A stretch of 49,422 nt of DNA from Nitrososphaeraceae archaeon (GCA_044870765.1 JBIOZG010000036.1:1-49422); one strand, 5' to 3'. Counted from the stretch's first letter, positions 14,994-36,795 are shown. The notes: generated by a model not told the origin, from the sequence alone. Numbers and translations: made by a program.

Positions 14994-16088
14994 TCACAAA
15001 CCACCGGCTTTTGCATGTTGTATTACACTATTCACTAGCATAGTTGGAGGTATTGGTTTGGTAATGAACTGACTTATCTTAAGTTCTGGTAACAGGGAAA
15101 TAATTTCACGAGAGATATCTAGCGCTGTAATAAATAGAAATTTAATATTCGGCTCGAAGGCCTTTAACTGGTGATATAATTCGAACCCATTCAGTCCTGG
15201 CATTCGAATGTCGGTCACAATTAAATCGTAATAGTGGTAATGCGACTTTATGAAATGTTTGAGCGCATCCTCAGAATTAGTAAACGAGTCGACAATGATA
15301 CCAGCCGACCTGAGCTCATCTCCAAAAACCAACGAAATGTCTGGGTCGTCGTCTATAAGCATTATTTTTAGCAACTTCGGTCCAAAATTGATTTTTATAT
15401 TTGATTGTTCCGTAGGGGTTGCCTGCTCAAATTTTTTAGCGATATGAGACTTGGCTGGGCTAAAAAGATAAACTGGATAAGAATATCTATTTTCCTTCCA
15501 CGTCAGCTCCTTTACCTCTTGAAAGTGGTACCGCCTAGCTAATTTGGGAAAGGAATTAAGAATCCTCCATAAATCCGCGCCAATTGCTATCCCGTTAGGT
15601 GGCGCTTTTTTGTTGATTTTATTGCAAAAGTTAAGAGTTGGTCCAAAAAGGTCGTAGGAAGCATTAAGCACACCAGACCTAGCAACTTCAAGTTTACCAT
15701 AATCGGCACTTATCCTATAAGAGATAGTGGCAGGCAGCTTGTCGTTTATTTCATTACGAGAAGATATCATGCTTAGTAAGCATTCCGCAGCGCTCTCGAA
15801 GGCGGCTTGATTTTCAATGTTACAAGTTTCAGGAAAGAAAAAAATGACACCATCCCCGACTGTCTTTAATATTTTACCACCATAATTCTTCACAATGTCT
15901 GCAATTTCATTGATAAAAACAGCATAAAAGTTCTTGAGTTTCCTAGAACTTTGTAGGTTGGATGTAATCTGCGATGAACCTATTACATCTATAAACGAAA
16001 CGCAGTAAGACTCCGACTTGTTTGAGAAGGTAACTTCTCTCCTGTCTTCCTCTTGTCGGATTTTTGTTGGTAACATACTTTCATCCAT
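14994..16088 (-). CDS. Class III adenylate/guanylate cyclase fused to a C-terminal receiver domain
   Basis: FIDVIGSS, KTVGDG and YDLFGPTLN cyclase motifs; IDDD, TDIRMPG, FITA and KP receiver motifs. Confidence 0.9.
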   Translation of the reverse strand: MDESMLPTKIRQEEDRREVTFSNKSESYCVSFIDVIGSSQITSNLQSSRKLKNFYAVFINEIADIVKNYGGKILKTVGDGVIFFFPETCNIENQAAFESAAECLLSMISSRNEINDKLPATISYRISADYGKLEVARSGVLNASYDLFGPTLNFCNKINKKAPPNGIAIGADLWRILNSFPKLARRYHFQEVKELTWKENRYSYPVYLFSPAKSHIAKKFEQATPTEQSNIKINFGPKLLKIMLIDDDPDISLVFGDELRSAGIIVDSFTNSEDALKHFIKSHYHYYDLIVTDIRMPGLNGFELYHQLKAFEPNIKFLFITALDISREIISLLPELKISQFITKPIPPTMLVNSVIQHAKAGGL

Positions 16089-18653: not shown

Positions 18654-19059
18654 TCATCTAATCGTTGTGACAACAAAATATTAATTATTATGCAAAATAG
18701 TTAGTTTGCAATTGCCATTTGTACATGGACAATAACAAGTCATATAAGATAAGATGGACTTTGTCGACGGTGAACCATTTTGACATCATTTCAAGGCTCA
18801 TTAGTGCACCCCAAATTCAATGGGATTTGGAAATCTAGCAATCACTGTGGTATATCTTGAAAATACTAAGAAAGAAGTTAAAGGAAAACAATTATCCCTG
18901 ACAAGGCAGGAGAAGCAGAATCGAATCAATCGAGCTCCTCTTAAACTAAACTCAGATTTACTAATTAATTTTTGTCAAAGCGAATAAAGGGTATTGGAGA
19001 CAAGGTTGTTTCTTAAATTTAGAACGATGCTTGTTTGTTTTGCAGATTTAAAAGAAAAG

Positions 19060-20514
19060 TTATAACATAGCTGCAAAATTTAGCCTTATTAATACGTCAA
19101 TGAGTAATACAATAGAACCAACCGCCACAGTGACTATCATAAAAGGAAACCCCACTTTAAGAAATTGATTAAAGGTGATTCTGTGGCCATTTATTTCGGC
19201 CAATCCTGTGGCAACAATCCCTGCACTCGAACCAACCATTGTACCGTTTCCTCCCAAACCAACTCCAAGTGACAATGCCCACCACAATGGGCTGATATCC
19301 AGATTTCCAAAGACTGCAGCGACTGATTCAGTATTGTAGATGGTAAATATGAGAGGGACCATAGTAGCAGCAAAGGGAATGTTGTCTATGAATGCACTTG
19401 CTATTGCAGATATCCAAATAATCATAAAGAATAATATCCATGGATTTCCTCCACTAATATGCAGTACGGTGCTTGACAATAGATCTATTAATCCTGCTTT
19501 TTCTGCACCGCTAATAATAATGAAAAGCCCTGCGAAAAAGATTAAAGTTGACCAATCCACAGATTTTAATATCTGTTCAGGTCTCGACTTTGCCAGAACC
19601 ATCAATATACCCGCACCACTCAATGCTATGATTGAAGGTTCTATCTTGAGACTCCCATGTATAACGAAAAGAACAATAACTGCACTTAACACTACTAATG
19701 ATTTTTTTAAAACTGATCTATCCTTGATGAGGACTTTCTCGTCCTGCGACAACAATTCTTCAAAATTATGGGGCTTTTGCGAAAGTTCTTTTCTAAACAT
19801 AAATTTTAAAATAAATAATGATACCAACAAAGAAACAGCAATTGTAGGACCCATGTTAATAATAAATGAAGTAAAGTCTATATTCGCAGCAGAACCGATT
19901 AATATATTGGGTGGATCTCCAATCAGTGTCGCAGTTCCTCCTACATTTGACGCAAGTACTTGTGCAATAATGAATGGAACTGGAGATATCCTGAGCGTCC
20001 TAAATACTGAGATAGTAATTGGAACTATTAACAGAACAGTGGTAACGTTATCTATAAACATGGAAATAATTGCAGTGAATAAGCAAAACATTACCAACAA
20101 CTTCCACATATTTCCCTCCGATGCCTTGCTCATCTTTATACCAAGGTACTCGAAAATTCCAGTCTGACCCAATATTGCTACGATTAACATCATTCCTAGC
20201 AGTAGCCCAATTGTATTGAAATCGATGGCGGCGATAGCAAATTCGAAACTCATAGATGCATCAAATAGCCCGGTTGTGATACCCATCAGTATAACAAATG
20301 CTGCTCCTACCATCGCTACAGTAGTCCTGTGAACGATTTCAAAAGAGAGTAGAACATATACCGCTAAAAGCACTAATGAAGTAAGCCTCAGAGAAAGTGA
20401 AATCTCCATTCCAACTAAATCTGGAATCACTAAAAATAGTACTGTTACAATTGCAAGAACAAAAAGTCCCACTCTTTGTTTATTTTTTACTAATAACAGG
20501 GTTTGGGATTTCAT
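19060..20514 (-). CDS. ArsB/NhaD (P-protein/SLC13-like) permease
   Basis: Polytopic membrane protein with DNVTT, GGTATLIGDPPN, DNIP and GGNGT. Confidence 0.9.
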   Translation of the reverse strand: MKSQTLLLVKNKQRVGLFVLAIVTVLFLVIPDLVGMEISLSLRLTSLVLLAVYVLLSFEIVHRTTVAMVGAAFVILMGITTGLFDASMSFEFAIAAIDFNTIGLLLGMMLIVAILGQTGIFEYLGIKMSKASEGNMWKLLVMFCLFTAIISMFIDNVTTVLLIVPITISVFRTLRISPVPFIIAQVLASNVGGTATLIGDPPNILIGSAANIDFTSFIINMGPTIAVSLLVSLFILKFMFRKELSQKPHNFEELLSQDEKVLIKDRSVLKKSLVVLSAVIVLFVIHGSLKIEPSIIALSGAGILMVLAKSRPEQILKSVDWSTLIFFAGLFIIISGAEKAGLIDLLSSTVLHISGGNPWILFFMIIWISAIASAFIDNIPFAATMVPLIFTIYNTESVAAVFGNLDISPLWWALSLGVGLGGNGTMVGSSAGIVATGLAEINGHRITFNQFLKVGFPFMIVTVAVGSIVLLIDVLIRLNFAAML

Positions 20515-20647
20515 TTTGACTGTTTATTAGATAAGCTTGAGTAATAAGATGGCATTAGGTCAGTTTTGTTTTTAGCTTACTCAAAGTATGCCATCGGGGT
20601 GTATTGACTAAATTCAGGATAAAATTCCAGTGTTGTTTGACTCGATA

Positions 20648-20902
20648 TTATAATGGAACCATTGTGTCTATCAGCCTTGCATTTGTAATTTGTCCATCTT
20701 TTTCATTTATCAACAGGTCGACTGTATATTGTAGACCATCAAGCAAGAAAGTTACCTGAGCGTCCCAGGCTTCTCTATTCTGTTCATTTGGATATGGAAG
20801 AAGAGTTCTAACCTTCAAATTCTCAACATTGCTACCATATAGCACCTCTGTTGCTCTTTTTGCTACTGATTCGACTTCTTTTTCGTTGCGAACCGGATTC
20901 AT
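20648..20902 (-). CDS. Small hypothetical protein (PepSY-like tail)
   Basis: ATG 20902 avoids overlap with ureC; YTVDLLINEKDGQI ending. Confidence 0.65.
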   Translation of the reverse strand: MNPVRNEKEVESVAKRATEVLYGSNVENLKVRTLLPYPNEQNREAWDAQVTFLLDGLQYTVDLLINEKDGQITNARLIDTMVPL

Positions 20903-20966
20903 GAACCAATTTGTATTTACAAAATATATAAGCATTATTATTCCGATGATTTTCAATGACAGTAAA

Positions 20967-22685
20967 CTAAAACAAGTTGTACAATCGCGACAATGAAAGC
21001 TCTTTTGCGGCCTCGACAGTCGCCACCTTTCCATCTACTTTAACAACATAAGTCTCCGGATCGATTTCTATTTTAGGTATCAAATTATTGTACACCATAT
21101 TTTTCTTGGATATATTGCGACAGTTTTTCACTGGTAAGAGTTTTTTCTTTAGATCCAATTTCTTTTGAAGACCATTTCTTATCGCTGCTTTTGAGGTAAA
21201 TGTTACTGATGTAGAATATCTAGCTTTGCCCTTGGCGCCAAACATAGGCCTGTAGTAGACAGGCTCTGGCGTTGGAATAGAAGCGTTTGCATCACCCATT
21301 AGCGAGTATGCTATAAAACCACCTTTAATAATGAGTTTTGGTTTTATCCCAAAAAATTGTGGCGTCCAAATTACTATATCGGCTATTTTCCCCGGTTGCA
21401 GTGATCCTACATAGTCTGAAATTCCATGTGTTATCGCAGGATTAATGGTGAGTTTTGCTAGATATCTTTTGACGCGCAGGTTATCGTTATTCCCTTTTTC
21501 TAGCTTTAGTCTTCCTGACATCTTTTTCATTTTGTCAGCAGTTTGCCAAGCCCTTGTTGTCACTTCTCCCACTCTACCCATAGCTTGACTATCAGAAGAA
21601 TACATGCTTATAGCGCCTATATCGTGTAATACATCTTCTGCAGCTATTGTTTCGGCCCTTATCCTTGATTCAGCAAATGCAACATCTTCTGATATAGATG
21701 GATTAAGATGATGACAGACCATCATCATATCAAGATGCTCTTCAAGAGTGTTTACTGTAAATGGTCTTGTTGGATTCGTTGATGAAGGTAAAACATTGAT
21801 TTCGCCGGCAATTTTTAGTATATCCGGTGCATGCCCTCCACCAGCTCCCTCTGTATGATATGTATGAATAGTTCTACCCGATATAGCGTCTATTGTATCA
21901 TTTACATATCCACATTCATTAAGTGTGTCAGTATGTATTGCTACCTGTGTATCTGTTTTGTCTGCAACTCTTAGAGCTGCGTCTATCGTGGCTGGAGTGG
22001 TACCCCAGTCCTCGTGAAGCTTTAGGCCACACGCCCCTTCACTTATTTGCTCTAATAGCGCCGGTTCTAATGAATCATTTCCTTTTGCCAATAATCCAAA
22101 ATTTAATGGATATTCATCCAACGACTCCAGCATTCTATGAATATTCCAGGGTCCTGGACTACAAGTTGTGGCCTTAGTACCTTCAGAAGGACCGGTACCA
22201 CCACCTATCATGGTAGTCGTACCACTACATATTGCTTCTACTATTTGCTGGGGTGAAATAAAATGTATATGAGTATCAATCGTTCCGGGGGTACAGATGG
22301 TGTGCTCTCCTGAAATAACTTCTGTATTTGCCGATACGATAAGATTATCATGTACGCCATCCATCACATTTGGATTTCCGGCCTTACCTATGGCCAAAAC
22401 CAATCCATCTTTGATGCCTATGTCTGTTTTAATAATACCCATCAAAGGATCGATCAGTATGGTGTTGGTAATAACAAGATCTAGTGAATATTTGCTCTTT
22501 ATTCCACTCGCCTGTCCCATTCCGTCTCGAATACTTTTGCCACCTCCAAAAACTAGTTCATCTCCGTACACTAATAGATCTTTTTCGATCTCTACTATAA
22601 GATCAGTATCTCCTAATCTAATTCTGTCGCCCTTTGTTGGTCCGTATAGCTCTACATATTGTTTCCTAGGAATATTTAGAACCAT
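20967..22685 (-). CDS. ureC: Urease alpha subunit
   Basis: [33 protein letters not shown] and SDSQAMGR. Confidence 0.99.
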
Positions 22686-22687
22686 GA

Positions 22688-23056
22688 CTATTTTTCCTCC
22701 TTAAACCCTTTTTTCTTAATCTTCAAAAGAGATATTTCTTTTTGTTTTTTTGTTAGTTTACCATTAACAAGACTATTAAAACCGAAAACGGTTTTTTTGC
22801 CTCCAAATTCTGTTACTTGTACAATTCTTGAATCCCCCGGTTCGAACCTCAGTGAGGTTCCCGATGGAATGTTTAGATGAAATCCAAATGTCTTGCTTCT
22901 CTGGAACGATAAGGCTTTATTAGTTTCAAAGAAATGTGTATGCGAGCCTACCTGAATCGGTCTGTCTCCTGTGTTTGTTACCTTAATTTTGATTGTTTTT
23001 CTCCCTACATTAGCCAGTATTGGTTCCTTGGACAAAAAATATTCACCAGGAATCAT
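22688..23056 (-). CDS. ureB: Urease beta subunit
   Basis: [19 protein letters not shown] and RFEPG. Confidence 0.98.
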
Positions 23057-23069
23057 TTCTCACCACACC

Positions 23070-23372
23070 TCATACAATAGGATTATGAACGGTTACCAGT
23101 TTGGTACCATCGTCAAACGTGGCCTCCACTTGAACGCTCTGTACTAGATCTGGAACTCCGGGCAATACGTCGCCTTTATTTAACACATGTCTTCCTGATT
23201 TCATGAGTTCAGAAACCGATTTTCCATCTCGCGCTCCTTCTAAAATGTAATCTGCGATTAGAGCCACCGATTCAGGATAATTGAGTTTTAAACCCCTTGT
23301 TTTTCTTTTTCGTGCGACCTCTGCACTCATAGAAATATATAATTTATCAATTTCTCTGGGAGATAGAAACAT
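23070..23372 (-). CDS. ureA: Urease gamma subunit
   Basis: [16 protein letters not shown] and [19 protein letters not shown]. Confidence 0.98.
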
Positions 23373-23445
23373 CTAAGATCAAATTTTATTGTAAAGTCAG
23401 ATATTTATAATTGATCTCAAATAATCAATTAAAGATTAGTTTTTC

Positions 23446-25188
23446 ATGAATGATAAAAATATGCAGTTATTTGGTAATGGTCTTAAAAGAACGTATGGAA
23501 CTGAAGCAAGGAGATACAATCTTTTAGCTGCGAGATTGATTGCTGACCTTGTTAAAGGCTTTCTGGGTCCCAGAGGACTTGAAAAAATGTTTATTGACAT
23601 TCTTGGCGAGGTGACTGTTACTAAGGATGGGGCAACATTTCTAAGAAAGATTGATGTTGAGCATCCTGCCGCTAAGGTTATTATTGAAGCCGCCAATGCG
23701 GTTGATAATGCCGTAGGAGATGGTACTACATCAGTTGTTGTGCTTGCAGGAGCCCTAGTTGAAAAAGCAGAAGGTCTATTAGAAATTGGTGTATCGCCAA
23801 GCAGAATTTTGGATGGTTATCATAATGCAATGCACATGGCACTTGAAATTGTCAGGAAAATATCCATTGAAACAACTAATCATGATAAAAAGATAATGAG
23901 ATATCTTATTGAGACTTGTATGAGATCAAAGGCTGTATCTCACTTTACAGAAGAAATAGTAATTCCCAGTCTTGTTGTTGACGGAATTTGTGAAATCGCT
24001 GATTTTTCAAGATGCTATCTTGAAGTGGATGACATTAAGATCGAGGAAAAAATAGGGAATAGTTCTGATACCGAGCTTGTTCATGGAACTGTAATAGACA
24101 AAACAATAGATGATTCGTCAATGCCCCGAATTATCGAAAACGCAAAGATTTTGCTTCTTGACAGCGACATTCAGGATGAACGCACAAAGACTGACGCCGA
24201 AATTAGAATTTCAGATCCTAGTCAGATGACCTCGTTCATAAAGAAAAAAACCAGTAACTTACTTCAAAAGATTCAGTATGTAATAGAATCTGGTGCAAAT
24301 GTTATTTTTTCCCGTGGTGGGATCGATTCCCTTGCACTAAATCATTTTGCCAAGAACAAAATGTTAACTGTTAGAAGAGTTAAAGAAAACGATTTGTTAT
24401 GGCTGGCAAAGGCTACCGGAGCCAAAGTAGTCAGGGATCTCGATAGCATAAACGGAAGTGATCTAGGGTACGCTGCAAAGGTGTATGAAAAAACAGTTGG
24501 TGATGACAAAATGGTTTTCGTTAATGGTTGCAGGAATCCAAAGTCAATAACAATTCTTTTGCGTGCCAATTCAAAAAAAATTCTTGATGAATTTCATCGT
24601 ACGATACTAGATTCTATTTATGTTTTGAGAAATTTTATTACGGATCCAAAAATTGTTCCTGGGGGAGGTGCCGTAGAAGCATTTATTGCCATGCTAATAA
24701 AAGAGAGATCATATCAATTACCAGGAAAGGAACAGATTGTGATCCAAAAGTTTGCAGAAGCCCTTGAAGAGATCCCGCTAACAATTGCCAGAAACTCAGG
24801 ATTGAACACAGTTGATATAAGAGCCCACCTCAGGCAAAGAGTTTACTCTCAATCACAGCCAAAGAATAATAAAAAAAGTAAACACAATTTCAATAATGAT
24901 CGTGAATGGTATGGAATAAACGCATTGGAAAGAAAAATAGACAACATGATGGAAATGCATGTTATAGAACCTTTAATTGTAAAGGAACAGATTCTTATAA
25001 CTGCAACCGAAGTCATTATTTTGCTTATGAGAGTCGATGACGTGCTGATGAAAAAACCAGTTGAAACACATGGACACTCTCATACACATATGGATGGCAC
25101 TACACATTCACATAAAGGAGGAAGTAAACCTCATGATCATTTTGATAAACTAGGAAAACAGCAAAGACCAATGCATCATTATTACTAA
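23446..25188 (+). CDS. Divergent group II chaperonin with a His-rich C-terminal tail
   Basis: GPRG, TKDGAT, GDGTTS and VPGGGA; 10 His in the last 39 residues. Confidence 0.93.
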   Translation: MNDKNMQLFGNGLKRTYGTEARRYNLLAARLIADLVKGFLGPRGLEKMFIDILGEVTVTKDGATFLRKIDVEHPAAKVIIEAANAVDNAVGDGTTSVVVLAGALVEKAEGLLEIGVSPSRILDGYHNAMHMALEIVRKISIETTNHDKKIMRYLIETCMRSKAVSHFTEEIVIPSLVVDGICEIADFSRCYLEVDDIKIEEKIGNSSDTELVHGTVIDKTIDDSSMPRIIENAKILLLDSDIQDERTKTDAEIRISDPSQMTSFIKKKTSNLLQKIQYVIESGANVIFSRGGIDSLALNHFAKNKMLTVRRVKENDLLWLAKATGAKVVRDLDSINGSDLGYAAKVYEKTVGDDKMVFVNGCRNPKSITILLRANSKKILDEFHRTILDSIYVLRNFITDPKIVPGGGAVEAFIAMLIKERSYQLPGKEQIVIQKFAEALEEIPLTIARNSGLNTVDIRAHLRQRVYSQSQPKNNKKSKHNFNNDREWYGINALERKIDNMMEMHVIEPLIVKEQILITATEVIILLMRVDDVLMKKPVETHGHSHTHMDGTTHSHKGGSKPHDHFDKLGKQQRPMHHYY

Positions 25189-25322
25189 GCCATGTAGATG
25201 CAGATTTGTAGCCTTATATGGCCTTTCTTATAGAATAAGAGGTTTATATTATCACTTTTTGTGATAAGAATATTTATACGGTTACCTATCAGTGGTATTT
25301 CTAATACATCACGTTGGGTCTT

Positions 25323-25709
25323 TCAAGGTGCTAGAATGTAGCCTGAAGTCGAAATAGGTTCTTTTATTGTGATTTTTAGCCTTTGTGAATTTGGCATTAG
25401 TATGTTGAAACTAATCTTTCGGAGGCTCTCTGGTACTCCGATCATTACCTGATCTGGTGTTAGGAGCATTGAAGCATTTGTTATCATTTCGTTTGTCTTC
25501 CTGTGCAAACGCAATTCTTTGATTATGTAATTGAGATAAATGTACAATGTTTCATTGAGGTTTATCCTCATATCTTTTGATAATTTATCATTTATAGATT
25601 TTATTAATTTTGACAGGATGATGTAGTCGGCTTTATTGTAAAACCGAAAAATTCTTGTGAAAGGTACCGTATCAGGTTCTCCTTGGACAGTAACTGCGAC
25701 GTCTATCAA
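25323..25709 (-). CDS. Urease-gamma-like orphan protein
   Basis: Central segment (INLNE...LLTPDQVMIGVPESLRKI) parallels UreA (LNYPE...[18 protein letters not shown]). Confidence 0.6.
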   Translation of the reverse strand: MIDVAVTVQGEPDTVPFTRIFRFYNKADYIILSKLIKSINDKLSKDMRINLNETLYIYLNYIIKELRLHRKTNEMITNASMLLTPDQVMIGVPESLRKISFNILMPNSQRLKITIKEPISTSGYILAP

Positions 25710-25729
25710 AGTAGTAACCTATCCATGAC

Positions 25730-26878
25730 TTATTTTTTGGCAGCTTTTCCATAGTCTATGGGAGGCCTTTTTGGAACTTTGGCCTTTGGTCCGTTACCAA
25801 AGTCATATGTGTTACCCAGTCCTCTATAGAATTTAGGTCGTACAGGATTTCCTTCAGTCTTGCCCTTTTTAGTTAATGATAATCCGGCCAATAGTTCTAC
25901 TATTAGTCTGTTTGCCAGTCCAGAGGTAATACCGCCATTATACGAATTACCATCACTTACGTCATAATTGGGAGCTACTTCAACTAAATCAAATGCAAAT
26001 CTATCTGGATCAAACGATGTTGAAAGAAGCCTCATCAGTCTCATACCTTCCCTCGATGTCAAACCATTTGGCTCAGGCTCACCTGTACCAGGAGCAAACG
26101 CAGGATCGAATGTATCGATATCCCAGCTTATATAGACTGCATCGACGTTATCGTTAGCTCTATCGGCTGCCTCTTTTGCTATCTTGTCTATCCCAAGCTC
26201 TTCAACATCCAGCATTGTGAACCATTGAAAATCCTGATCTGCCATCCATTTATACAAATCAGGTCCTGGCCAATATCCACGCGGTCCTATCAGAGTATAG
26301 TTCTTTCCTTTGAGACATCCAAGCTCCATTATTCTTCTAATATGTGCACCATGATCGTACTTGAAACCAGTTAACCCTTGTGGAGCACAATCGGCGTGAG
26401 TATCAATATGGATCATTCCAATATTTTTATACTTCTTGGCAAAAGCACGCACGTTCGCAAAAGTTATCGAATGGTCCCCACCAAGCATGACTGGAATACC
26501 GTCTATATCTAAAACTTCTTTCACTTTATCTGTCATTCTCCTATGAGATTCAACCACGTCACCAGGAGATACATTTACGTCCCCATAGTCAACAGTTCTA
26601 AAAACACCAAATGGATCTACCCCCGTTTCTATGTTAAAATGCTCATATGGTGGAGAAGGAACAGTAGACGCCGCCCTGATTGCTCGGGGACCGTATCTTG
26701 CTCCAGGACGAATAGTTGTTCCAAAGTCAAAAGGTTCTCCAATTATTGCTACATCTGGTTTGACACTCTTTAGCTCTTCATGACTTCTTATCCAAGGCAG
26801 CTTCAGAAACGTTGGAATGCCCACAAAAATAGGCTCATCGTTACCCTTGTACGAATTACCATAAAATTCCATACCCAT
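25730..26878 (-). CDS. Ureohydrolase (agmatinase/arginase family), substrate unknown
   Basis: RPGARYGP, GGDHSIT, DTHAD, SWDIDTFDP and DLVEVAP. Confidence 0.95.
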   Translation of the reverse strand: MGMEFYGNSYKGNDEPIFVGIPTFLKLPWIRSHEELKSVKPDVAIIGEPFDFGTTIRPGARYGPRAIRAASTVPSPPYEHFNIETGVDPFGVFRTVDYGDVNVSPGDVVESHRRMTDKVKEVLDIDGIPVMLGGDHSITFANVRAFAKKYKNIGMIHIDTHADCAPQGLTGFKYDHGAHIRRIMELGCLKGKNYTLIGPRGYWPGPDLYKWMADQDFQWFTMLDVEELGIDKIAKEAADRANDNVDAVYISWDIDTFDPAFAPGTGEPEPNGLTSREGMRLMRLLSTSFDPDRFAFDLVEVAPNYDVSDGNSYNGGITSGLANRLIVELLAGLSLTKKGKTEGNPVRPKFYRGLGNTYDFGNGPKAKVPKRPPIDYGKAAKK

Positions 26879-27079
26879 ACTTAGTCCATTCTTGTAAGGT
26901 GGTATATTTTTTAAATATTTCTGAACCTAGTTGAATTTCACCAGAAAAAACTAGATATTTATTCATGCTATCAGGTTCTAGAAATAATTATTGCAAATAT
27001 TTTAATAATTGTAAATTTCTTAGCTAATTCTCTACTTTTGCGTTAAATCCTTATATATATAACAAATTAACAAGTTTGG

Positions 27080-28612
27080 ATGGTATCACTTGACTGGTAT
27101 GGAGTCGGTGTTATTGCATTTTTAGCTGCGTCTTTGGTCGTTGGAACATTAACCTCAAGGCTAGTAAAGAAAAGTAGTAAAAGATACATGGTTGCTGGTA
27201 AGAGTCTCCCGCTTTTTTTTGTGGGTACAATGCTGGCTGCCCAGGCAATAGATGGTAACTCTTCTCTTGGTAATGTTTCTCTAGTGTATCAATTTGGCAT
27301 TTGGGCTGGAGCTGCTATCCCTATTGGACTTGGGATATGCCTAATCCTTACAGGAGCATTTTATGGTAAAAAATTGAACAAGATGTCAATGCTTACTCTT
27401 CCTGACTTTTATTACAGAAGGTTTGGAGCAGGAGCAGAAGGTATCTCAGGAGTACTTATGATCATTAGTTTTATAGTTCTTGTAGCTGGTAACTTTGCTG
27501 CCAGCGGATATATACTTACTGCTGTACTACATATTGAATTCTTTTGGGCAATGCTTATAGCGGCACTGGTTGTGCTAGTCTACACATTTGCTGGTGGTCT
27601 CTTTTCTTCAGCGTACACAGACATATTCCAAATATATCTAGCAATAGGTGCATTTTGGGCGGCTTTCATATTTTTTGCCGGAGGATTTGCAGGAGTCGAT
27701 TTTAGTACTATCCTGGGTAATGCACCACCCTCGTATATTGATCTCTCTGGGCTAACTGATATTGGAAATGGAGCACTTGTTAATTGGGCAGGAATTATGG
27801 CTTTGGCGTTGGGCGATATAGTGGCGCTTGATTTTATGGAAAGAGTTTTTGCAGCGAAAGATGGCAAGACAGCACGAAGAGGTGCATTCATGGGAGGAGG
27901 ATTGACATTATTTACAGTCATTCCCACAACTATGATGGGTATAGTAGCACTATATTTCCTTCCGAATTTGGCTGATCCATTTACAGCATATCCTGATTTG
28001 GCCATAAATCACGTGCCATTTGCAATAGGTATTGCTCTATTGATGGGAGTTTTGGGAGCATCTATGTCAACAGCAAATGGAGGATTGCTTGCAATATCAA
28101 GCGTTATTTCAAGGAACATTATACAACGAGACATATTGAAAAAATGGCTCAAGAGACCAGGTATGGACGATAGAAAACTATTGAGAACGACAAGGATATT
28201 TACCATTCCGATGATGGCTGCCGCATTTATTCTAGGCTATTTATTGCCTCAACCTGGTGTTTACCTCATTTTGGCCTTTGATATAGTGTTTGCTGGCGCG
28301 TGGGCTCCTCTTACTTTGGGTTTGTTTTGGAGAAAAGCAAATTTCCCAGCTGCAATCACATCTTTAGTTTTAGGATCTGGCCTTAGATTGTTATTATACT
28401 TTGTTATGCCCATAGAACTTGCTGGCCTTGATACAATGATACCACCAGTCGTATCGTTTGTGGCATTTATCATAGTAGCTCTCGCAACACAGAAGAAGCA
28501 TCCTGGAACGGAAAGACATGGTGTTATAGAGTATGTTCCACCAGAACAAGATGTAGTTTTGGGTGAGGAGCTTAAAGGCTATACAAGTCCAAGTGGTTTG
28601 AAATTTTCTTGA
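27080..28612 (+). CDS. Sodium:solute symporter (SSS/SLC5 family)
   Basis: YMVAGKSLP, TLPDF...RFG, YT..GGL....YTD, ERVFAAK and ASMST. Confidence 0.93.
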   Translation: MVSLDWYGVGVIAFLAASLVVGTLTSRLVKKSSKRYMVAGKSLPLFFVGTMLAAQAIDGNSSLGNVSLVYQFGIWAGAAIPIGLGICLILTGAFYGKKLNKMSMLTLPDFYYRRFGAGAEGISGVLMIISFIVLVAGNFAASGYILTAVLHIEFFWAMLIAALVVLVYTFAGGLFSSAYTDIFQIYLAIGAFWAAFIFFAGGFAGVDFSTILGNAPPSYIDLSGLTDIGNGALVNWAGIMALALGDIVALDFMERVFAAKDGKTARRGAFMGGGLTLFTVIPTTMMGIVALYFLPNLADPFTAYPDLAINHVPFAIGIALLMGVLGASMSTANGGLLAISSVISRNIIQRDILKKWLKRPGMDDRKLLRTTRIFTIPMMAAAFILGYLLPQPGVYLILAFDIVFAGAWAPLTLGLFWRKANFPAAITSLVLGSGLRLLLYFVMPIELAGLDTMIPPVVSFVAFIIVALATQKKHPGTERHGVIEYVPPEQDVVLGEELKGYTSPSGLKFS

Positions 28613-28705
28613 AAACAATTCCTCCAAAGACTAGTGTGTATTTGCTGTTACCTCACACTAATCTTGGCAGATTAATTAGCGGTAGGAATTAATAAACAGT
28701 CAATT

Positions 28706-29299
28706 TTGAAGAGGTCGTCTTATTTTTTGTTGTTCCCTAAAAAGCCACAGATAACAAACATTGAAGATGTGAAAGAGCAAATTACCAAAATAATTTCAAG
28801 TCAACGAAAACAAATTGAATCAAATTTAAAAACAACCGTTTCAGATGTCCAAAATCTTCTTTCTGAAATTTCAGAATTCAATCATAGGTGGATGAAGCTC
28901 CCCACTATCTATAGAATTGCGTGGATAAGTACCTCTGAGGATGATACTGTTGAAAATGTCACGTTTAAAGAAAATATTGAATTACCTAATATAGATCATG
29001 ATTTGGAACTTATCATGAAAATGTTAAATCACATGAGAGAGGAAAAAAATCTAAAGGTAACTGACATGCCTTTATTTATTCATCCTGATGAAATTTCAAT
29101 TGCGCAGATGGAAGATAGATTTCCTTACGGAAACATTAGCATTATTTCTCAAATCGCCATAGTATTTCAGAAGGGCAGAATAAAATATGTCGGATTAGTT
29201 ATTGATAGAAATTACGTCTTGCTCCAAGATAGATTAATAAATCTTATTTTACAAAAATTACCTCTTATCGATCAGATCAGATGTACATTTAAATCTTGA
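28706..29299 (+). CDS. Hypothetical protein
   Basis: 197-aa ORF, no recognised motif. Confidence 0.7.
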   Translation: MKRSSYFLLFPKKPQITNIEDVKEQITKIISSQRKQIESNLKTTVSDVQNLLSEISEFNHRWMKLPTIYRIAWISTSEDDTVENVTFKENIELPNIDHDLELIMKMLNHMREEKNLKVTDMPLFIHPDEISIAQMEDRFPYGNISIISQIAIVFQKGRIKYVGLVIDRNYVLLQDRLINLILQKLPLIDQIRCTFKS

Positions 29300-29376
29300 T
29301 TCAAAACTTGGGCACTAGTAGCCAGTATTAAGGCCAAGATTAAAATTTAAAGACTATTAGTACAGATTAGAATACA

Positions 29377-29637
29377 ATGCCTTCAACGGCGTTCCTCTCA
29401 AAAAAATTATCACAAGAACTATTAAATCTCGATATTGATGAAGGAATACGAATAGAATCAAAGAATATAAAGTGTAAAATGTACATAAATAAGAGAACAT
29501 CAGGATATTTCGTTCTTGAAATCGAAGATACGAATTCAACTAATATCAAAGAATTCAGATTCTATAGAGATATCAAACCTATTCATAGGCTTATAGACAA
29601 GATTTTTGGAAAACAATATTCCATTACCATTTATTGA
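29377..29637 (+). CDS. Small hypothetical protein
   Basis: ATG start with TATA-like upstream; T-tract downstream. Confidence 0.6.
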   Translation: MPSTAFLSKKLSQELLNLDIDEGIRIESKNIKCKMYINKRTSGYFVLEIEDTNSTNIKEFRFYRDIKPIHRLIDKIFGKQYSITIY

Positions 29638-29668
29638 TTCTAACATCTGTTATTTTTTTTCGGTTTGT

Positions 29669-29690
29669 TGCGATGCGATGCGATGCGATG
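29669..29690. repeat. Pentanucleotide microsatellite (CGATG)x4
   Basis: Read directly; intergenic. Confidence 0.9.
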
Positions 29691-29943
29691 ACCTGTAAAG
29701 ATATCAGAAAAAGAATTTGATTATAAGCGAATCAGTATGTTACTGTAGTAGTGAACAGACTAATTATAATCAGGAGATGATATATGGTTCTTTCCAACCA
29801 TCCAACGAACGATTGACATCCTCGTTCTTGCACAACTAAACTTCACCAGCAGTAATTGTAACTATAAATTGAGCAAGGGAATTGAGAGTCGATTTTTTTG
29901 TTCTTGTTCTTGGTCTTTTAATCGACCTCATAAAGCTAACATA

Positions 29944-30237
29944 TCATCTAGATATTTGCACTTCTATAGTTGAAACGTTTCGCTCTCTTCCATCTTCAGA
30001 TTGCATTGTCTGTGTTCCTATTTTTACGTGTCCAATTTTGTATCCCATATTATCCATACGCTTCACTATAATTTGGGCAACATCAACCGCACGCGTTATG
30101 CTTTTTCCCCTGGCCTTTACAAGTACGGTAGGCTCATTTGCTAACTGTACCAGTGTTGCAGTCACATAAGTCATCAAAGGCTTCTTTCCTATCAAAATTT
30201 CATTATTCGCCCGCCTCGTGCCAGCACTTGAAGTCAT
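29944..30237 (-). CDS. albA: DNA/RNA-binding protein Alba
   Basis: IGKKPLMTYV, KARGKSITRAVDVA and NVSTIEV. Confidence 0.97.
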   Translation of the reverse strand: MTSSAGTRRANNEILIGKKPLMTYVTATLVQLANEPTVLVKARGKSITRAVDVAQIIVKRMDNMGYKIGHVKIGTQTMQSEDGRERNVSTIEVQISR

Positions 30238-30291
30238 TTACAAGTGAAGATCCAAATCCTAAATATATTAGTTGTTGATAGCTTGATATTC

Positions 30292-30540
30292 TCATTCTTT
30301 AGAATGCTTTAGAAGTATGTCTTCAAAATTATTCGGGTTCTTGACGATTTCTTGGACTACCGTTTGATCATCTACCTCATAACAATGCGTCAGATTTTCT
30401 TCATCTTTGTAAAAAATATAGACTTTATTGTCGTAAATACAATAATACATTTTGTCGACGATCATTTTTTCGGGGTCGATTTTTATTCCGTCCTTTTCAA
30501 CAATAACAGGATATTCCAACATTTTTATGATACATTTCAT
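30292..30540 (-). CDS. Small hypothetical protein
   Basis: 82-aa ORF with protein-like composition. Confidence 0.65.
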   Translation of the reverse strand: MKCIIKMLEYPVIVEKDGIKIDPEKMIVDKMYYCIYDNKVYIFYKDEENLTHCYEVDDQTVVQEIVKNPNNFEDILLKHSKE

Positions 30541-32058: not shown

Positions 32059-33192
32059 TTGAATGATAATATTTCTTTAAATGAGATAGGAAAGAAAATA
32101 ATATTTCATATTGATTTTGATTATTTTTACGCACAATGTGAAGAGGTAAGAAAGCCAGAATTAAGAGATATTCCTAGTGTTGTTTGTGTTTATTCCGGAC
32201 GAGAGGACGATTCTGGAGTAGTCAGTACGTGCAATTATGAAGCACGAAAATATGGTGTTAAGGCGGCAATGCCAATTAGGGCAGCAAAATCGAAATTGAA
32301 AGACGTAGGAGCAGTATTCCTTCCTACAGATATTCCGTATTATCAGGAAATATCCAGGAACGCTATGAAGATTATTCAAAATTATGGAGATTTATTCGAA
32401 CAGGTCAGTGTTGATGAATGTTATGTGGATTTTACAAGGATTACCAATTCAGATTTTGATGATGCAAAGATTTTTGCCACTTCGCTGCAAAAGAATATCA
32501 AAGAGCAAATTAATTTGACATGCTCCATTGGAGTGGGACCTAACAAGTTGATATCAAAAATAGCATCAGGTGTTAACAAGCCCAATGGAATAACAGTGGT
32601 CAGTCAGAATGATGCCAAAAATTTTATCTCAAACTGCAAGATTGAAGATATTCCTGGAGTAGGTCCAAAAACAGGATTGAAGTTAAATTCTCTTGGGATC
32701 AAGTCTATTTCCGATATATCAAAGAAAAATATTTTTGAGTTGAGAGATGCGTTGGGATACAAGACTGCCACGTTTTTGGCAAATGCTTCAAATGCAATTG
32801 ATTATTCTCAGATAAAAATTCGTGGAACATCAAAGCAAATCGGTAAGATTGTTACCTTGAAGAAGGACAAACCTGAATTTGAACAGATTAAAATGATAGC
32901 TGGCACTCTTTGTGCATCTGTATTTGAGAATCTAAAGAATAAGAGACAGGCTTGCAGGGTACTTACTGTAATATTAATTTTAGAAAATCTACAACACGTA
33001 TCAATTTCAAAAAGCCTAAAGTTATACTCCGCATCATTAGAGGAATTAAACAAGAATTCATTGTTAATCATAAACGAGATGATTAGCAACAATTCCATAT
33101 CTCTAGATAACATTAGAAGGATGGGTCTAGTAGTTTCAGATCTTAAGGATATATCAGGACAGGACTCGTTATTGAATTACTTTGAAAATTAA
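32059..33192 (+). CDS. dinB: Y-family DNA polymerase IV (Dbh/DinB)
   Basis: HIDFDYFYAQCE, CNYEARKYGV, SVDECY and KPNG. Confidence 0.96.
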   Translation: MNDNISLNEIGKKIIFHIDFDYFYAQCEEVRKPELRDIPSVVCVYSGREDDSGVVSTCNYEARKYGVKAAMPIRAAKSKLKDVGAVFLPTDIPYYQEISRNAMKIIQNYGDLFEQVSVDECYVDFTRITNSDFDDAKIFATSLQKNIKEQINLTCSIGVGPNKLISKIASGVNKPNGITVVSQNDAKNFISNCKIEDIPGVGPKTGLKLNSLGIKSISDISKKNIFELRDALGYKTATFLANASNAIDYSQIKIRGTSKQIGKIVTLKKDKPEFEQIKMIAGTLCASVFENLKNKRQACRVLTVILILENLQHVSISKSLKLYSASLEELNKNSLLIINEMISNNSISLDNIRRMGLVVSDLKDISGQDSLLNYFEN

Positions 33193-33307: not shown

Positions 33308-34273
33308 TCAGGAACGTAAGAATTTCAAGGACTCATCGGTTAGAGTTTGCAGTATTTTGTCTGACATTGATTTAACTATTTTTGCATTGACGAAATTTGG
33401 TTTTCCACCACCTAACCCTATTTCTTGATTCTTTCTGAGATTTTGAAAAATTTTAACACAATCCAAGTCAACGTCAGCACTCCTTGCATATATGAGATTC
33501 GCCATATCTCTATCATCCACATTAATTAATATAATGATAGTTCTTGGTTCCAGTATCTTTTCTCCAGCAAAATTTTGAATGATTCGCCAATTTGCATTGT
33601 CCAAGATTGATGATATTAAAGTTATATTATTTTTTACAAAATGCTGGATTGGTATCTCATTCAGCATCCTATTTGTTATTTTTTTTAACTGCCCGTAATA
33701 CTGTTCTCTTTCGTTGTAAAGTCTTCTAATAGTTGCCTCTGCGGTATTGGAATTTGCGTCTATCTGTTCACAAATCATATTAATTTTTTCTATAGCGTTG
33801 ACAGCTTCATCCATCGCATTTTTACCTACCATAAACTTGATTTCATGATCAGAACCATTCTTTGACAAACTAGTTACCAAGAAAAATATACATTCGGATA
33901 AATTATTAACATGTTCCATAGAACATGCAGCAACATCGTGGTTTTCTATTTCGACCACTGTAATCTTTTCAGCATCAGCTAATCTTGCCTCATTGGCCCT
34001 CAAATTTGGTAACTTCATCTTGGCTTCATTCAGCGAGGGAAATGAATGATGCAATATTTTTCGCCCCTCTAATATTAACTGATTTACCTCCTTCTGTGCC
34101 ATGGATATCTTTTCTAAATCTAAATATATTTCTGATGCACTGATAAAAGCTACATTATACGAATCCTTATGTTCTACTTTTCTTACGCTTAATGTCTTGT
34201 TCAATATTTTCTGAAGCGATCCTATGAAGGCATGTTCTGCAGTATGTGCGGCCTTGGCGTTCATATTCATCAA
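33308..34273 (-). CDS. AlaX-like tRNA editing protein with a DHHA1-like C-terminus
   Basis: HTAEH and ACSMEH zinc motifs; GGGKP near the C-terminus. Confidence 0.8.
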   Translation of the reverse strand: MMNMNAKAAHTAEHAFIGSLQKILNKTLSVRKVEHKDSYNVAFISASEIYLDLEKISMAQKEVNQLILEGRKILHHSFPSLNEAKMKLPNLRANEARLADAEKITVVEIENHDVAACSMEHVNNLSECIFFLVTSLSKNGSDHEIKFMVGKNAMDEAVNAIEKINMICEQIDANSNTAEATIRRLYNEREQYYGQLKKITNRMLNEIPIQHFVKNNITLISSILDNANWRIIQNFAGEKILEPRTIIILINVDDRDMANLIYARSADVDLDCVKIFQNLRKNQEIGLGGGKPNFVNAKIVKSMSDKILQTLTDESLKFLRS

Positions 34274-34908
34274 TTCAGGTTATTGATGTACGTCAGCATC
34301 AGGGCATTAATTATTGAGGAGGCTGCAGGACTACCCCCTTTTCTTCCTTTATTTGTTATAAACTCCACATTGGCCTTTGATAGTTCCAATTTTGATTCTG
34401 AAGCAGAGACAAATCCTACGGGTATTCCGATCACAAGTGAGGGTCTTGCTGCATCTTCTTTTACCATTTTGATTACTTCATATAGAGCTGTTGGAGCATT
34501 TCCTATCACAACTATCCCACCATCTATTTCTTTTGATGAATATCTCATTGCAACTGTTGATCTTGTCTTATTCTGATTTTTTGATATTTCAACTACTTCC
34601 TTGTTTGAAATGTTACATATCAAATTGGTCCCAATTTTTGCTACAGATTTTTTGTTTATTCCCGACAAAACCATATCAACATCAACAACAATATGGCGTC
34701 TTTGTTTTAATGCACTACAAGCGTTTTCAATTGCATTGGTTGAAAAGATAATTCCATTTTTATCAGGTTTAGCAAAATCAAAATCAGCAGTGGCATGAAT
34801 AACCCTCCTGACAATATTCCATTGTGCCTTACTGTAACCATGAATTCCTATCTCAGATTCAATGATTTTCATACTGTTTTCTTCTATGCCAAGGGCAGCT
34901 TCGGACAT
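34270..34908 (-). CDS. cbiC: Precorrin-8X methylmutase
   Basis: RRVIHATADF, IGNAPTAL, PVGFV and GRKGGS; ATG 34908 preferred. Confidence 0.95.
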   Translation of the reverse strand: MSEAALGIEENSMKIIESEIGIHGYSKAQWNIVRRVIHATADFDFAKPDKNGIIFSTNAIENACSALKQRRHIVVDVDMVLSGINKKSVAKIGTNLICNISNKEVVEISKNQNKTRSTVAMRYSSKEIDGGIVVIGNAPTALYEVIKMVKEDAARPSLVIGIPVGFVSASESKLELSKANVEFITNKGRKGGSPAASSIINALMLTYINNLN

Positions 34909-34954
34909 GTCTCTAGATTTTGCCCTGTATGTTCTCTTTAGTACGTCATTACCT

Positions 34955-35716
34955 TCAGCCAACTTTTCCCTCGGCCTCCCTTGTCCTTTCAAGAACCATA
35001 TTTACTAGTTTTGGATCTACTCCAAAATGTTCTGTAATATACACTGGAATTTTTTTTGGGTTACAATTTTCTAGAGCGGAATTGATATCTTTAACAACAT
35101 CATTTTTTATGTGAGCTCCTTTGTGTAGGAAATATGGAACTATAATTATTACATTTGGATTACTGGAGATTACTCCTTCTATCCCCTTTGCTATTCGTGG
35201 GTCATCCAATTCCAGAAAACAAAAAGTAACGCTTCTATAATTTGGTTTTAGTTCATTAACCGTGTGTATAAATGCAGTCCTAGCAGTTTTGTCACTACTT
35301 CCATGACCGATAACAAGTATATCGCACTTGTCATCTTCAAGTACTATTCCGTTTTTTACTCTAGCATTACTTATCCTATCTTTTATGATTGAAATAAGTA
35401 GGTCATGATAGCTCAGGGGTTTTGCAATTACTACTCTTATTCCCTTATCGTAACATATTTTGGCTGTCTTTTTTACAGAATCTTTCAATTTCATCCCAGG
35501 GTATAGGAAGTACGGCATGACTGTTATCGAATCTACATTCTTAGAAACACATCTGCTGATACCCTCTTCAATGTAGGGTGGTATGACTTCAAGGAAGCAA
35601 TGATCGACAAGGACGTATCTGCTTTTCTCCTTGATCATATTGCATAATTGAACCAACTCTTCTTTGGCCTCTGGTTCCCTGCTACCCCTATCAATTAGTA
35701 ATAGTGCCCTGTTTAT
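34955..35716 (-). CDS. cbiX: Sirohydrochlorin cobaltochelatase CbiX (two-domain); probable ATA start
   Basis: Two repeats: LLLIDRGS..CFLE..PYFLYPG and LVIGHGS..CFLE..PYFLHKGAH; the first motif lies upstream of TTG 35656. Confidence 0.9.
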   Translation of the reverse strand: MNRALLLIDRGSREPEAKEELVQLCNMIKEKSRYVLVDHCFLEVIPPYIEEGISRCVSKNVDSITVMPYFLYPGMKLKDSVKKTAKICYDKGIRVVIAKPLSYHDLLISIIKDRISNARVKNGIVLEDDKCDILVIGHGSSDKTARTAFIHTVNELKPNYRSVTFCFLELDDPRIAKGIEGVISSNPNVIIIVPYFLHKGAHIKNDVVKDINSALENCNPKKIPVYITEHFGVDPKLVNMVLERTREAEGKVG

Positions 35717-35718
35717 AC

Positions 35719-36795
35719 CTAAGCACCCATTTTATTGTAATTTATCCGGGAAACTGCAACTGTGAGATTGGGTGGGAATTTTTGTTTACCGACTATAAGC
35801 TCACCGCCTGAACTGAGTATTGAAGATGCTTCCGAAACACTCGAAGTACCTTCATACTTTTTTACTAGTTCAGATGGATTTGGAACCGTCACATTACTCA
35901 ACTTATCTTTATCAAAAAATTCAAGAGGAATTCCATGTTTATCAGAAAATGCTCCCAAGGTAATAGGAGACTTGCTTCTATATATGGTCGAGAGATTTCT
36001 AATGCTAAGAAAAGACAATCCATTTTCCTCCAACACTTTCATAATTCCTTCTTCTATGTCTGCCTGGGTAGTATCCCAGTGAAAACCTATTCCTACAACA
36101 AGGCTTTTTGGTCTATAGATTACAGATTTTCTAAGTAGTATTGGATCTGCTATGATTTTATCAGAAATGATTAACCCTGCTTTGAAATCATCTGATGTTA
36201 ATTCATCAATATTTTGAACTACTGTTACGTTTTTTGGTAATTCTTTGTCCCACCATTTGGATTCACCGGCATCTTGATAGACGCCTATTTTTTCTTCGTT
36301 TACCATATGAGCACTCACCTTAGTAACGTTTTCAAAATTTTCAATACGCCATTGAAAATTATTCCCCAGGAGATCTACTGCTATCGTTTCATTGACATCG
36401 GCAGCAGTGGTTATAACAGCTGTTGAATTAAGGATATCTGCAATTGATTTGGACAATGCGTTGGCACCTCCCAAGTGACCTGATAGTGCACTTATGACAA
36501 AGTTAGCTTTATCATCGATTACTATAACCGCTGGGTCTGTCTTCTTATCCACCAAAAGATTTGATATCAAACGAATAACAGCTCCTAATGAAAAAATACA
36601 TATAATGCTATCGTATTCTTTGAAAATCTCTTCAACCATGATTTTTGTATTTTTCTCAAACCAGATAATCCCATCAGAAGAGTCTTTATGTTTAGATTGA
36701 GAATAAATAGAAGCTGAAGGAATTTTTTCCTTTATTCTTTTTGCTATATTGATTCCATTTTTAGTAATACAAATTATAGCAACCTTGCTGCTCAT
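35719..36795 (-). CDS. cbiG: Cobalt-precorrin-5A hydrolase CbiG
   Basis: DKKTDPAV, SGHLGGAN, ITTA and SVSEA. Confidence 0.95.
   Translation of the reverse strand: MSSKVAIICITKNGINIAKRIKEKIPSASIYSQSKHKDSSDGIIWFEKNTKIMVEEIFKEYDSIICIFSLGAVIRLISNLLVDKKTDPAVIVIDDKANFVISALSGHLGGANALSKSIADILNSTAVITTAADVNETIAVDLLGNNFQWRIENFENVTKVSAHMVNEEKIGVYQDAGESKWWDKELPKNVTVVQNIDELTSDDFKAGLIISDKIIADPILLRKSVIYRPKSLVVGIGFHWDTTQADIEEGIMKVLEENGLSFLSIRNLSTIYRSKSPITLGAFSDKHGIPLEFFDKDKLSNVTVPNPSELVKKYEGTSSVSEASSILSSGGELIVGKQKFPPNLTVAVSRINYNKMGA

Follow-up and report, generated by a model that had tools for sequence, protein, structure and literature searches.

Why would an ammonia-oxidising archaeon that already has a urease keep, beside its urease genes, an arginase-family ureohydrolase, a sodium:solute symporter (SSS) and a chaperonin with a histidine-rich tail? 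This question is raised by a 49,422-nt stretch of DNA from a Nitrososphaeraceae archaeon (GCA_044870765.1 JBIOZG010000036.1:1-49422), the whole of which is referred to here as the window. An earlier note on this DNA had read the genes at 20967-28612 as a candidate contiguous pathway from an imported guanidino compound via urea to ammonia. We find that the functional unit is a five-gene accessory module, made up of a short SSS transporter, a 382-aa arginase-family ureohydrolase (hereafter UH), a paralog of the urease gamma subunit (UreA-like), a His-tailed thermosome and an 84-aa protein, and not a urease with its neighbours. The reading that we favour, with a confidence only a little better than even, is an accessory pathway: a guanidine-type compound would enter by the short SSS, UH would convert it to urea and urease would convert urea to ammonia, and the remaining three proteins would act as helpers of UH.

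The genome that holds the window (G000; 2.0 Mb in 59 contigs, completeness rating 96.65%) encodes an archaeal AmoA (395 bits) and hence belongs to an ammonia oxidiser. Since a ureE-F-G-D operon is present on a separate contig (C35) in addition to ureABC in the window, the source organism is a urease-positive ammonia-oxidising archaeon (AOA) of soil. Genes were located by listing open reading frames (ORFs) and by Pfam and NCBIfam profile searches. Every gene named in the earlier note was recovered at its place, including the UreA-like gene, the His-tailed chaperonin and ureABC beside UH, and SSS and UH diverge across exactly 201 bp (26879-27079). A 128-aa ORF formerly listed at 20648-21034, overlapping ureC, proved to be an over-call; the conserved gene at this site is the 84-aa one at 20648-20902 on the minus strand. 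The features are as follows.

20648..20902, minus strand: gene of an 84-aa PepSY/cystatin-like small protein, module member; the conserved part starts from ATG at 20902.
20967..22685, minus strand: ureC, urease alpha subunit (TIGR01792, 919 bits, positions 2-568); the sole ureC found in the source genome.
22688..23056, minus strand: ureB, urease beta subunit (PF00699, 140 bits).
23070..23372, minus strand: ureA, urease gamma subunit (PF00547, 150.6 bits; NF009712, 153 bits against a cutoff of 123).
23446..25188, plus strand: thermosome (group II chaperonin) paralog with a His-rich C-terminal tail at ~25051-25185 (NF041082, 538 bits against a cutoff of 450).
25323..25709, minus strand: UreA(gamma)-like paralog with an extra N-terminal beta-hairpin and a TTG start (PF00547, 31.9 bits against a cutoff of 23.9).
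25730..26878, minus strand: UH, 382-aa ureohydrolase of a seemingly distinct clade with Glu267, the loop TVPSPPYEHF and a C-terminal extension (PF00491, 270 bits).
26879..27079, no strand: divergent intergenic region of 201 bp between UH and SSS with two conserved AT-rich TATA-like blocks, defined from the sequence and 13 same-genus loci.
27080..28612, plus strand: short SSS transporter, a 510-aa sodium:solute symporter (PF00474, 96 bits).

Conservation of this neighbourhood across AOA was surveyed in loci of ~20 kb (17-20 kb) that hold the UH ortholog, 20 from genomes of the family to which the window belongs (f1) and 20 from two other AOA families (f2 and f5), whereby homologs of the window proteins were placed by tblastn. 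Within 10 kb, the f1 loci contain UH in 20/20, the short SSS in 19/20, the chaperonin in 20/20, UreA-like in 19/20, the 84-aa gene in 17/20 and ureC in 6/20. The f2/f5 loci contain UH, the short SSS and the 84-aa gene in 20/20 each, chaperonin and UreA-like in 15/20 each and ureC again in 6/20. Several of the misses are due to contig ends or to genes just beyond the fetched stretch, as for the chaperonin of G250. The recurrence of UH, UreA-like, chaperonin and SSS in the 40 fetched loci shows that the arrangement is not due to chance. Order and orientation of the genes vary between families while the set is retained, and the module appears to be a vertically conserved accessory set of AOA.

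In a class-wide sample of 301 genomes, a strong UH match was found in 80 and ureC in 124. Matching the two hit tables by eye, 79 of the 80 UH-positive genomes are also ureC-positive; in the remaining one, G087, a contig end bears ureA and ureB. For f2 alone, all 57 UH-positive genomes of this sample carry ureC, and 25 ureC-positive genomes have no UH. A separate sample of f1 (151 genomes) gave a strong UH match in 85 genomes and fragments in 2 more, and 75 of the 85 have ureC at E≤1e-50. These tallies include the unpublished genomes G035, G077 and G099 (family sample) and G398 (class sample), whose removal shifts any count by at most 2 and none of which is among the fetched loci.

The helper genes follow UH and not ureC. 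With a profile of the 84-aa protein, 77 of the 301 class genomes gave a match. All 77 are UH-positive, and no match came from the 221 UH-negative genomes; the three remaining UH-positive genomes are fragmented or cut at the locus. Five complete f2 genomes with ureC but without UH have neither the 84-aa gene nor an SSS of ~510 aa, and beside ureC exhibit only long SSS frames of 669-788 aa. In these five, thermosome matches end at residue 536 or before, whereas they reach residue 580, through the tail, in five of five UH-positive genomes. The same contrast in helpers and SSS is seen between 2 UH-negative and 3 UH-positive complete genomes of f1. Taken together, the three helper proteins belong with UH, not with urease; how they would act on it is proposed below. 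The contiguous pathway module of the earlier note consequently holds in part: UH, SSS and the helpers stay together and UH occurs almost only in urease-positive genomes, but the adjacency of ureABC is lineage-specific, and the view of the UreA-like gene and the His-tailed chaperonin as linked to urease had to be given up, since presence and absence in complete genomes and the 84-aa profile tie them to UH.

Two further patterns concern the module in other families. UH of the f2 genera g26, g32 and g46 (loci L067, L074 and L075) is 93-94% identical to that of the window, compared with 76-84% in other f2 genera, while the short SSS of these loci is more divergent (54-58%) than in other f2 loci (63-72%). 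This could reflect a transfer of the module between families or the existence of two SSS subtypes.

UH clearly passes the arginase-family model PF00491 (270.5 bits, gathering threshold 22). Across 45 aligned sequences, no exchange is seen at its metal ligands H136, D159, H161, D163, D253 and D255 or at the catalytic H176 and E300. The source genome contains three PF00491 genes, which allowed a direct look at the case that UH is simply the housekeeping agmatinase. With the agmatinase model TIGR01230 (cutoff 174.3), a paralog on contig C43 passes at 194.6 bits, whereas UH (156.1) and the third paralog (152.9) stay below. Among solved structures, UH is closest to the guanidinobutyrase GbuA (3NIO, E 4.6e-51), followed by the guanidinases 9FEK and 7ESR, proclavaminate amidinohydrolase (PAH) and GpuA; SpeB-type agmatinase and arginase structures score far lower. 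Database entries name UH either 'agmatinase' or 'guanidinobutyrase'.

Across AOA families UH is 76-99% identical to the window protein, with 88-96% (median 94%) in f1 loci and 77-94% (median 83%) in those of other families. The UreC medians in the same loci, 83% (f1) and 78% (other families), are lower. UH is hence more conserved than UreC, which suggests unusually tight constraints.

The pocket shows features of its own. Of the guanidinase signature (T105, H222, W313 and E344 in the numbering of Nitrospira inopinata), UH retains equivalents as T54/T55, H176 and E300, while Trp313 corresponds to Glu267; this mapping was made manually from a HMMER alignment, assuming a tag offset of +2 in chain 9FEK. 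In more distant UH relatives, position 267 is Glu in 17/28, Thr in 10/28, Val in 1/28 and Trp in 0/28. In GbuA, Arg72 from the neighbouring subunit caps the pocket and is thought to bind the substrate carboxylate, according to PMC9772407. The corresponding loop reads TVPSPPYEHF in UH, an insertion with neither Arg nor Lys, although the alignment near it is approximate; the neighbouring clade with Thr267 retains an Arg at the cap loop. Further marks of the UH clade are six residues inserted behind the YD motif and a basic extension, likewise conserved, at the C-terminus. By these traits UH seems to be a ureohydrolase of a distinct clade.

The short SSS passes PF00474 with 96.1 bits against 22.8, and no NCBIfam equivalog model was passed. 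With the long urea-type SSS of AOA it shares ~25% identity, and the two are of different length (frames of ~510 aa versus 669-791 aa). The two also differ in their surroundings: the long form (669-791 aa) lies beside ureC in 10 of 10 complete genomes checked and the short one beside UH, the latter being absent from 7 of 7 complete genomes that are ureC-positive and UH-negative. Judged from these comparisons, the short SSS is not orthologous to the urea-type (DUR3-like) SSS flanking ureC in AOA. It is a distinct paralog, present among the genomes checked only in UH-positive ones, and as far as sequence tells would fit a solute other than urea. Of the solved structures, SLC5A7, a high-affinity choline transporter, comes closest to it (9.6e-25) and vSGLT ranks behind, a likeness which may be taken as a weak hint at an organic cation as substrate.

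The spacer between UH and SSS measures 198-238 bp in 13 loci, all of the window's genus, these being the ones among 30 short loci in which both starts are divergent. It contains conserved TATA-like blocks, tatttttta(a) near UH and ttaaatccttatatata near SSS. A partly conserved palindrome, TTCTAGAA, lies in the middle of the spacer in the window (26879-27079) and in 12 loci of the same genus. It is possibly an operator for a regulator.

The three helpers are of different origin. The chaperonin passes NF041082 (538.4 vs 450) and NF041083 (527.7 vs 400), has the GDGTT motif and ends in ETHGHSHTHMDGTTHSHKGGSKPHDHFDKLGKQQRPMHHYY. Of 19 orthologs that were recovered in 20 loci, 18 share the tail motif THTHxDGTxHSHxGGxKxHDH(Y)FDxLGKxQRPxHHYY and one ends early. 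Searched alone against PDB sequences and Pfam, the His-rich tail gave no match. As it sits on the group II chaperonin subunit itself, it presumably faces the folding chamber, going by the general architecture of thermosomes. A role of the chaperonin as substitute for a missing UreE was considered and discarded, ureE being present in the source genome.

The UreA-like protein passes PF00547 yet misses the UreA equivalogs, with 33.6 bits for NF009712 (cutoff 123) and 35.2 bits for TIGR00193 (cutoff 82.3). Its AF2 model (pLDDT 92.9) has the urease-gamma fold plus an added N-terminal beta-hairpin, and the 17 best Foldseek matches in PDB are all ureases, aligned over the gamma-subunit part (best E 1.6e-6, TMt ~0.78). 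The combination of a gamma-like fold and a PF00547 pass with missed equivalogs indicates a paralog and not UreA. Its start lies between -4 and +14 nt from the UH stop in 31 of 33 loci, from which the gene appears to be translationally coupled to UH. A complex prediction for UH and UreA-like, each entered as an alignment, returned a score of 0.00, which is no verdict and counts as evidence neither way. Viral hypothetical clusters proposed as relatives by an Atlas search share <170 features with it and were taken as chance.

In a 25-row alignment of the 84-aa protein, W46, D47 and V61-D62-L63 are invariant. The AF2 model (pLDDT 88.8) consists of one helix and four strands. No Pfam match was obtained, and Foldseek against PDB gave nothing at E≤0.001. 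VIA-align reported Z 8.0 to the C-terminal domain of YpeB, among many cystatin/NTF2-like rows of similar Z, and the automatic name in Atlas is 'PepSY domain-containing'. The fold likeness is thus a generic one to cystatin/NTF2/PepSY.

The SSS-UH pair is not confined to AOA. We found 45 haloarchaeal loci with a UH ortholog (49-55% identity), 40 of which have an SSS homolog (33-39% to that of the window) within the 8-kb flanks and 6 of which have ureABC genes nearby. A conserved gene for an AbrB/PhoU-type regulator is found in 41 of these loci; in the locus examined it lies between UH and SSS. Apart from the SSS, this regulator and a JAB-domain ORF are the only conserved neighbours, and the set is uninformative on the substrate. 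The occurrence in haloarchaea suggests that the pair is older and more widespread than the AOA module, with the three helper genes as an addition made in AOA.

Within AOA two types of ureC can be told apart by their alignment to TIGR01792, one covering positions 1/2-568 with ~900-950 bits and the other positions 1-567 with ~860-895 bits. The first includes the window's ureC and almost all ureC of f2. The second lies beside a long SSS and a very divergent chaperonin-like gene in 5 of 5 complete f1 genomes (G001, G014, G032, G043 and G107), the latter being 27-30% identical to the window's thermosome paralog. An Hsp60 homolog has been described in urease loci of Nitrosocaldus and Nitrososphaerales, where it was proposed to stabilise urease, and as missing from Nitrosopumilales (PMC5797428); the divergent chaperonin-like gene would fit this homolog as found in Nitrososphaerales. 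The His-tailed thermosome is a different protein and occurs in f2. Some f1 genomes (e.g. G107 and G079) possess both urease types, with the first inside the module. This module-borne urease fits the 'extra set of UreABC' given for two Nitrososphaera species in a figure legend of the same paper (PMC5797428).

Contigs from RNA libraries (4 runs from 3 studies, at least 95% likeness) cover UH, SSS, UreA-like, ureCBA and the 84-aa gene, and a single contig spans UreA-like and UH; they attest presence in RNA libraries only. Contig depth varies from gene to gene and some runs leave parts of the chaperonin gene uncovered, from which no conclusion is drawn. For the NS-delta clade, PMC11131427 describes a pair of SSS and 'agmatinase' as expressed.

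On this basis we propose the following route. The short SSS would import a small guanidine-type compound, which the cytoplasmic UH would hydrolyse with release of urea, as suggested by the chemistry of its family and its intact catalytic residues. That urease converts urea to ammonia is established chemistry. Urease, encoded here inside the module and presumably matured by ureEFGD from elsewhere in the genome, would then supply ammonia for ammonia oxidation. Our best guess for the chaperonin is that it would fold UH and load it with metal by means of the His-rich tail, and for the UreA-like protein that it would serve UH as stoichiometric subunit or adaptor. The lack of a by-product or organic-amine gene in the set, the missing Arg cap and the acidic pocket with Glu267 would together favour guanidine or a further small guanidine, cationic or neutral, such as methylguanidine or agmatine over guanidino acids, albeit as a weak ranking. 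That guanidine itself is the substrate is possible but on the doubtful side. A combined version, in which a previously unrecognised ureohydrolase clade of AOA, from soil to ocean, would hydrolyse free guanidine or a close analogue, a thermosome 'metallochaperonin' tail would deliver Ni or another metal in the folding chamber and a gamma-like subunit would be attached, is as a whole rather unlikely.

How does this compare to known systems? One of the closest is the guanidinase route of comammox Nitrospira and Synechocystis GdmH (9FEK, 7ESR/7OI1), which likewise places a ureohydrolase beside a dedicated importer in a nitrifier and passes urea to urease. UH matches these guanidinases at E 4e-48 and 4e-47 and keeps all metal ligands besides the residues mentioned above. 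The routes differ in Trp313 versus Glu267, in the importer (APC permease or ABC system versus SSS) and in the helpers, which are HypA/HypB homologs there and a thermosome paralog, UreA-like and a PepSY-like protein here; moreover an Rfam search over 19000-30500 at E≤1 found no riboswitch. Known guanidinases bind Ni, and the cyanobacterial one is far more active when co-expressed with Ni-loading chaperones, as stated in PMC11410670. GbuA and GpuA of Pseudomonas aeruginosa and human GDAH (AGMAT) agree with UH in fold and metal site but differ by the Arg72 cap, and Glu267 in the UH pocket argues against acidic substrates. The gpuA gene presumably adjoins a sodium:solute symporter gene, gpuP; our literature search, which had most subscription journals outside its scope, gave no paper combining gpuA, guanidinopropionate and a symporter. 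Agmatinase SpeB shares the arginase fold and the release of urea, yet E. coli SpeB structures reach ~111 bits against UH compared with 177 for GbuA, and the SpeB role is filled by the C43 paralog in the source genome.

The canonical AOA urease locus (ureABC-ureDEFG, a UT-type urea transporter, DUR3-like SSS and Hsp60 homolog; PMC10753782 and PMC5797428) resembles the locus described here in the organisms, in the end reaction and in having an SSS and a chaperonin-family gene beside urease. It differs in that the SSS is long and the chaperonin an Hsp60 homolog, as opposed to the short SSS and the true thermosome with His tail in the window; besides, many urease-positive genomes do not have the module. 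HspA of Helicobacter pylori, a GroES with a His-rich, Ni-binding C-terminal tail, is also a chaperonin-system protein in an organism dependent on a Ni enzyme. Its tail, however, is a loose His/Cys run linked to urease or hydrogenase, whereas the tail described here is conserved in sequence and tracks a ureohydrolase. Within the same scope, the literature search gave no paper on the five-gene module or on a His-tailed thermosome. While a route of transporter, ureohydrolase and urease is known as such, the dedicated His-tailed chaperonin is unreported and potentially novel.

Several observations speak against the proposed guanidine-type route. The main one against a strict dependence on urease is the group of ten among the 85 UH-positive f1 genomes that lack ureC (G115, G006, G016, G057, G067, G074, G087, G091, G092 and G100); G016 is rated 99% complete, the other nine are fragmented and rated 59-96%. 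UH does not have the Trp313 of guanidinases, Glu267 being found in 17 of 17 AOA sequences, and Palatinszky et al. (PMC11410670) report no guanidine-degradation genes in AOA; the cultures tested for guanidine there were ammonia-oxidising bacteria (AOB) and N. inopinata, with no AOA among them. UH and SSS each have a promoter-like block of their own. The haloarchaeal UH-SSS pairs do without the three helpers, which are hence not intrinsic to the enzyme. Contigs from RNA libraries can neither prove transcription nor rank the genes. Finally, the short SSS is the sole SSF match in G000 and no UT-type urea transporter was found in this genome; it could therefore be the urea importer of the cell.

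This last point leads to an explanation by urea housekeeping, in which the short SSS is a (low-affinity) urea transporter and UH an enzyme of agmatinase or arginase type whose substrate is made in the cell, with urease recycling the urea. It has precedent in the literature: in the NS-delta clade a single SSS clustered with an 'agmatinase (SpeB)', conserved and expressed, was labelled a urea transporter and read as regulating the urea concentration (PMC11131427), and a path from arginine via agmatine to urea by SpeB was described as a general potential of AOA (PMC6790972). The score of UH on the agmatinase model is not far below the cutoff, and confinement of UH to urease-positive genomes would fit urea recycling as well. 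Yet a separate paralog passes the agmatinase equivalog, UH is accessory (80 of 301 class genomes), and the short SSS is both dissimilar to the SSS flanking urease and missing from all complete ureC-positive genomes without UH that were checked. The SSS-UH pair furthermore recurs in haloarchaea mostly without adjacent urease, and an endogenous enzyme has no obvious need for its own transporter and chaperonin. We regard this explanation as unlikely.

Could the helpers instead serve the co-located urease, by nickel supply or assembly, with UH and SSS as bystanders? The proposed urease stabiliser Hsp60 in AOA urease loci (PMC5797428), the service of the His-rich HspA to Ni enzymes in Helicobacter and the urease gamma fold of UreA-like would agree with this. 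It is nonetheless quite improbable, given that neither the His-tailed chaperonin nor the small protein occurs in five complete genomes that have this urease type and lack UH, that in 28 of 40 loci these genes have UH but no ureC within 10 kb, that UreA-like is apparently coupled to UH in translation, and that a full ureEFGD set exists elsewhere in the genome. That the genes share no function at all and merely reflect a gene order common to relatives by descent is scarcely credible: the set persists from family to family in changing order and orientation, its genes follow an all-or-none pattern in the 301 genomes, and the SSS-UH pair is also found in another group of archaea, the haloarchaea.

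In the ocean and in many soils, AOA are the dominant ammonia oxidisers, and the nitrogen compounds they can use shape nitrification and fertiliser loss. To our knowledge, urea and cyanate are the organic nitrogen sources accepted for AOA so far, and use of guanidine has been shown only for comammox Nitrospira. The module, present in 80 of 301 class genomes and nearly restricted to urease-positive ones, is a concrete candidate for a further substrate class. If the combined version given above is correct, a subset of urease-positive AOA would draw energy from guanidine-type nitrogen, among ammonia oxidisers until now credited only to comammox Nitrospira and partially to some AOB. A paralog of the group II chaperonin that serves a single enzyme and has a conserved, metal-binding tail would represent a new kind of maturation factor.

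Some observations concern the surroundings of the module. The sole Rfam match in the range searched is 5_ureB_sRNA (RF02514) at 22236-22531 on the plus strand, antisense within ureC, with 43.7 bits against a gathering threshold of 40; as this family is a Helicobacter urease antisense RNA, the match probably reflects conserved coding sequence and not an sRNA. On contig C35 (L158, 5069-8927), the gene of a LysE-type translocator (basic amino acid exporter family) directly precedes ureE-F-G-D, with an Amt ammonium transporter nearby. Export of a basic by-product would agree with the proposed pathway, yet this gene is without any link to the module. A transporter of the CitMHS/ArsB superfamily (19060-20514, minus strand; best NCBIfam match MamN-like, under the cutoff) adjoins the 84-aa gene; only 2 of 40 loci have it close to the module, to which it is therefore probably unrelated. 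Directly downstream of the SSS, a 197-aa ORF (28706-29299, plus strand) gave no family match; a homolog stands beside the SSS in 5 of 20 f1 loci (37-51% identity) and in 0 of 20 f2/f5 loci. Farther away, the window encodes an adenylate/guanylate cyclase domain fused to a response-regulator receiver (14994-16088, minus strand), a Y-family (DinB-like) DNA polymerase (32059-33192, plus strand) and the cobalamin synthesis genes cbiC, cbiX and cbiG (34270-36795, minus strand).

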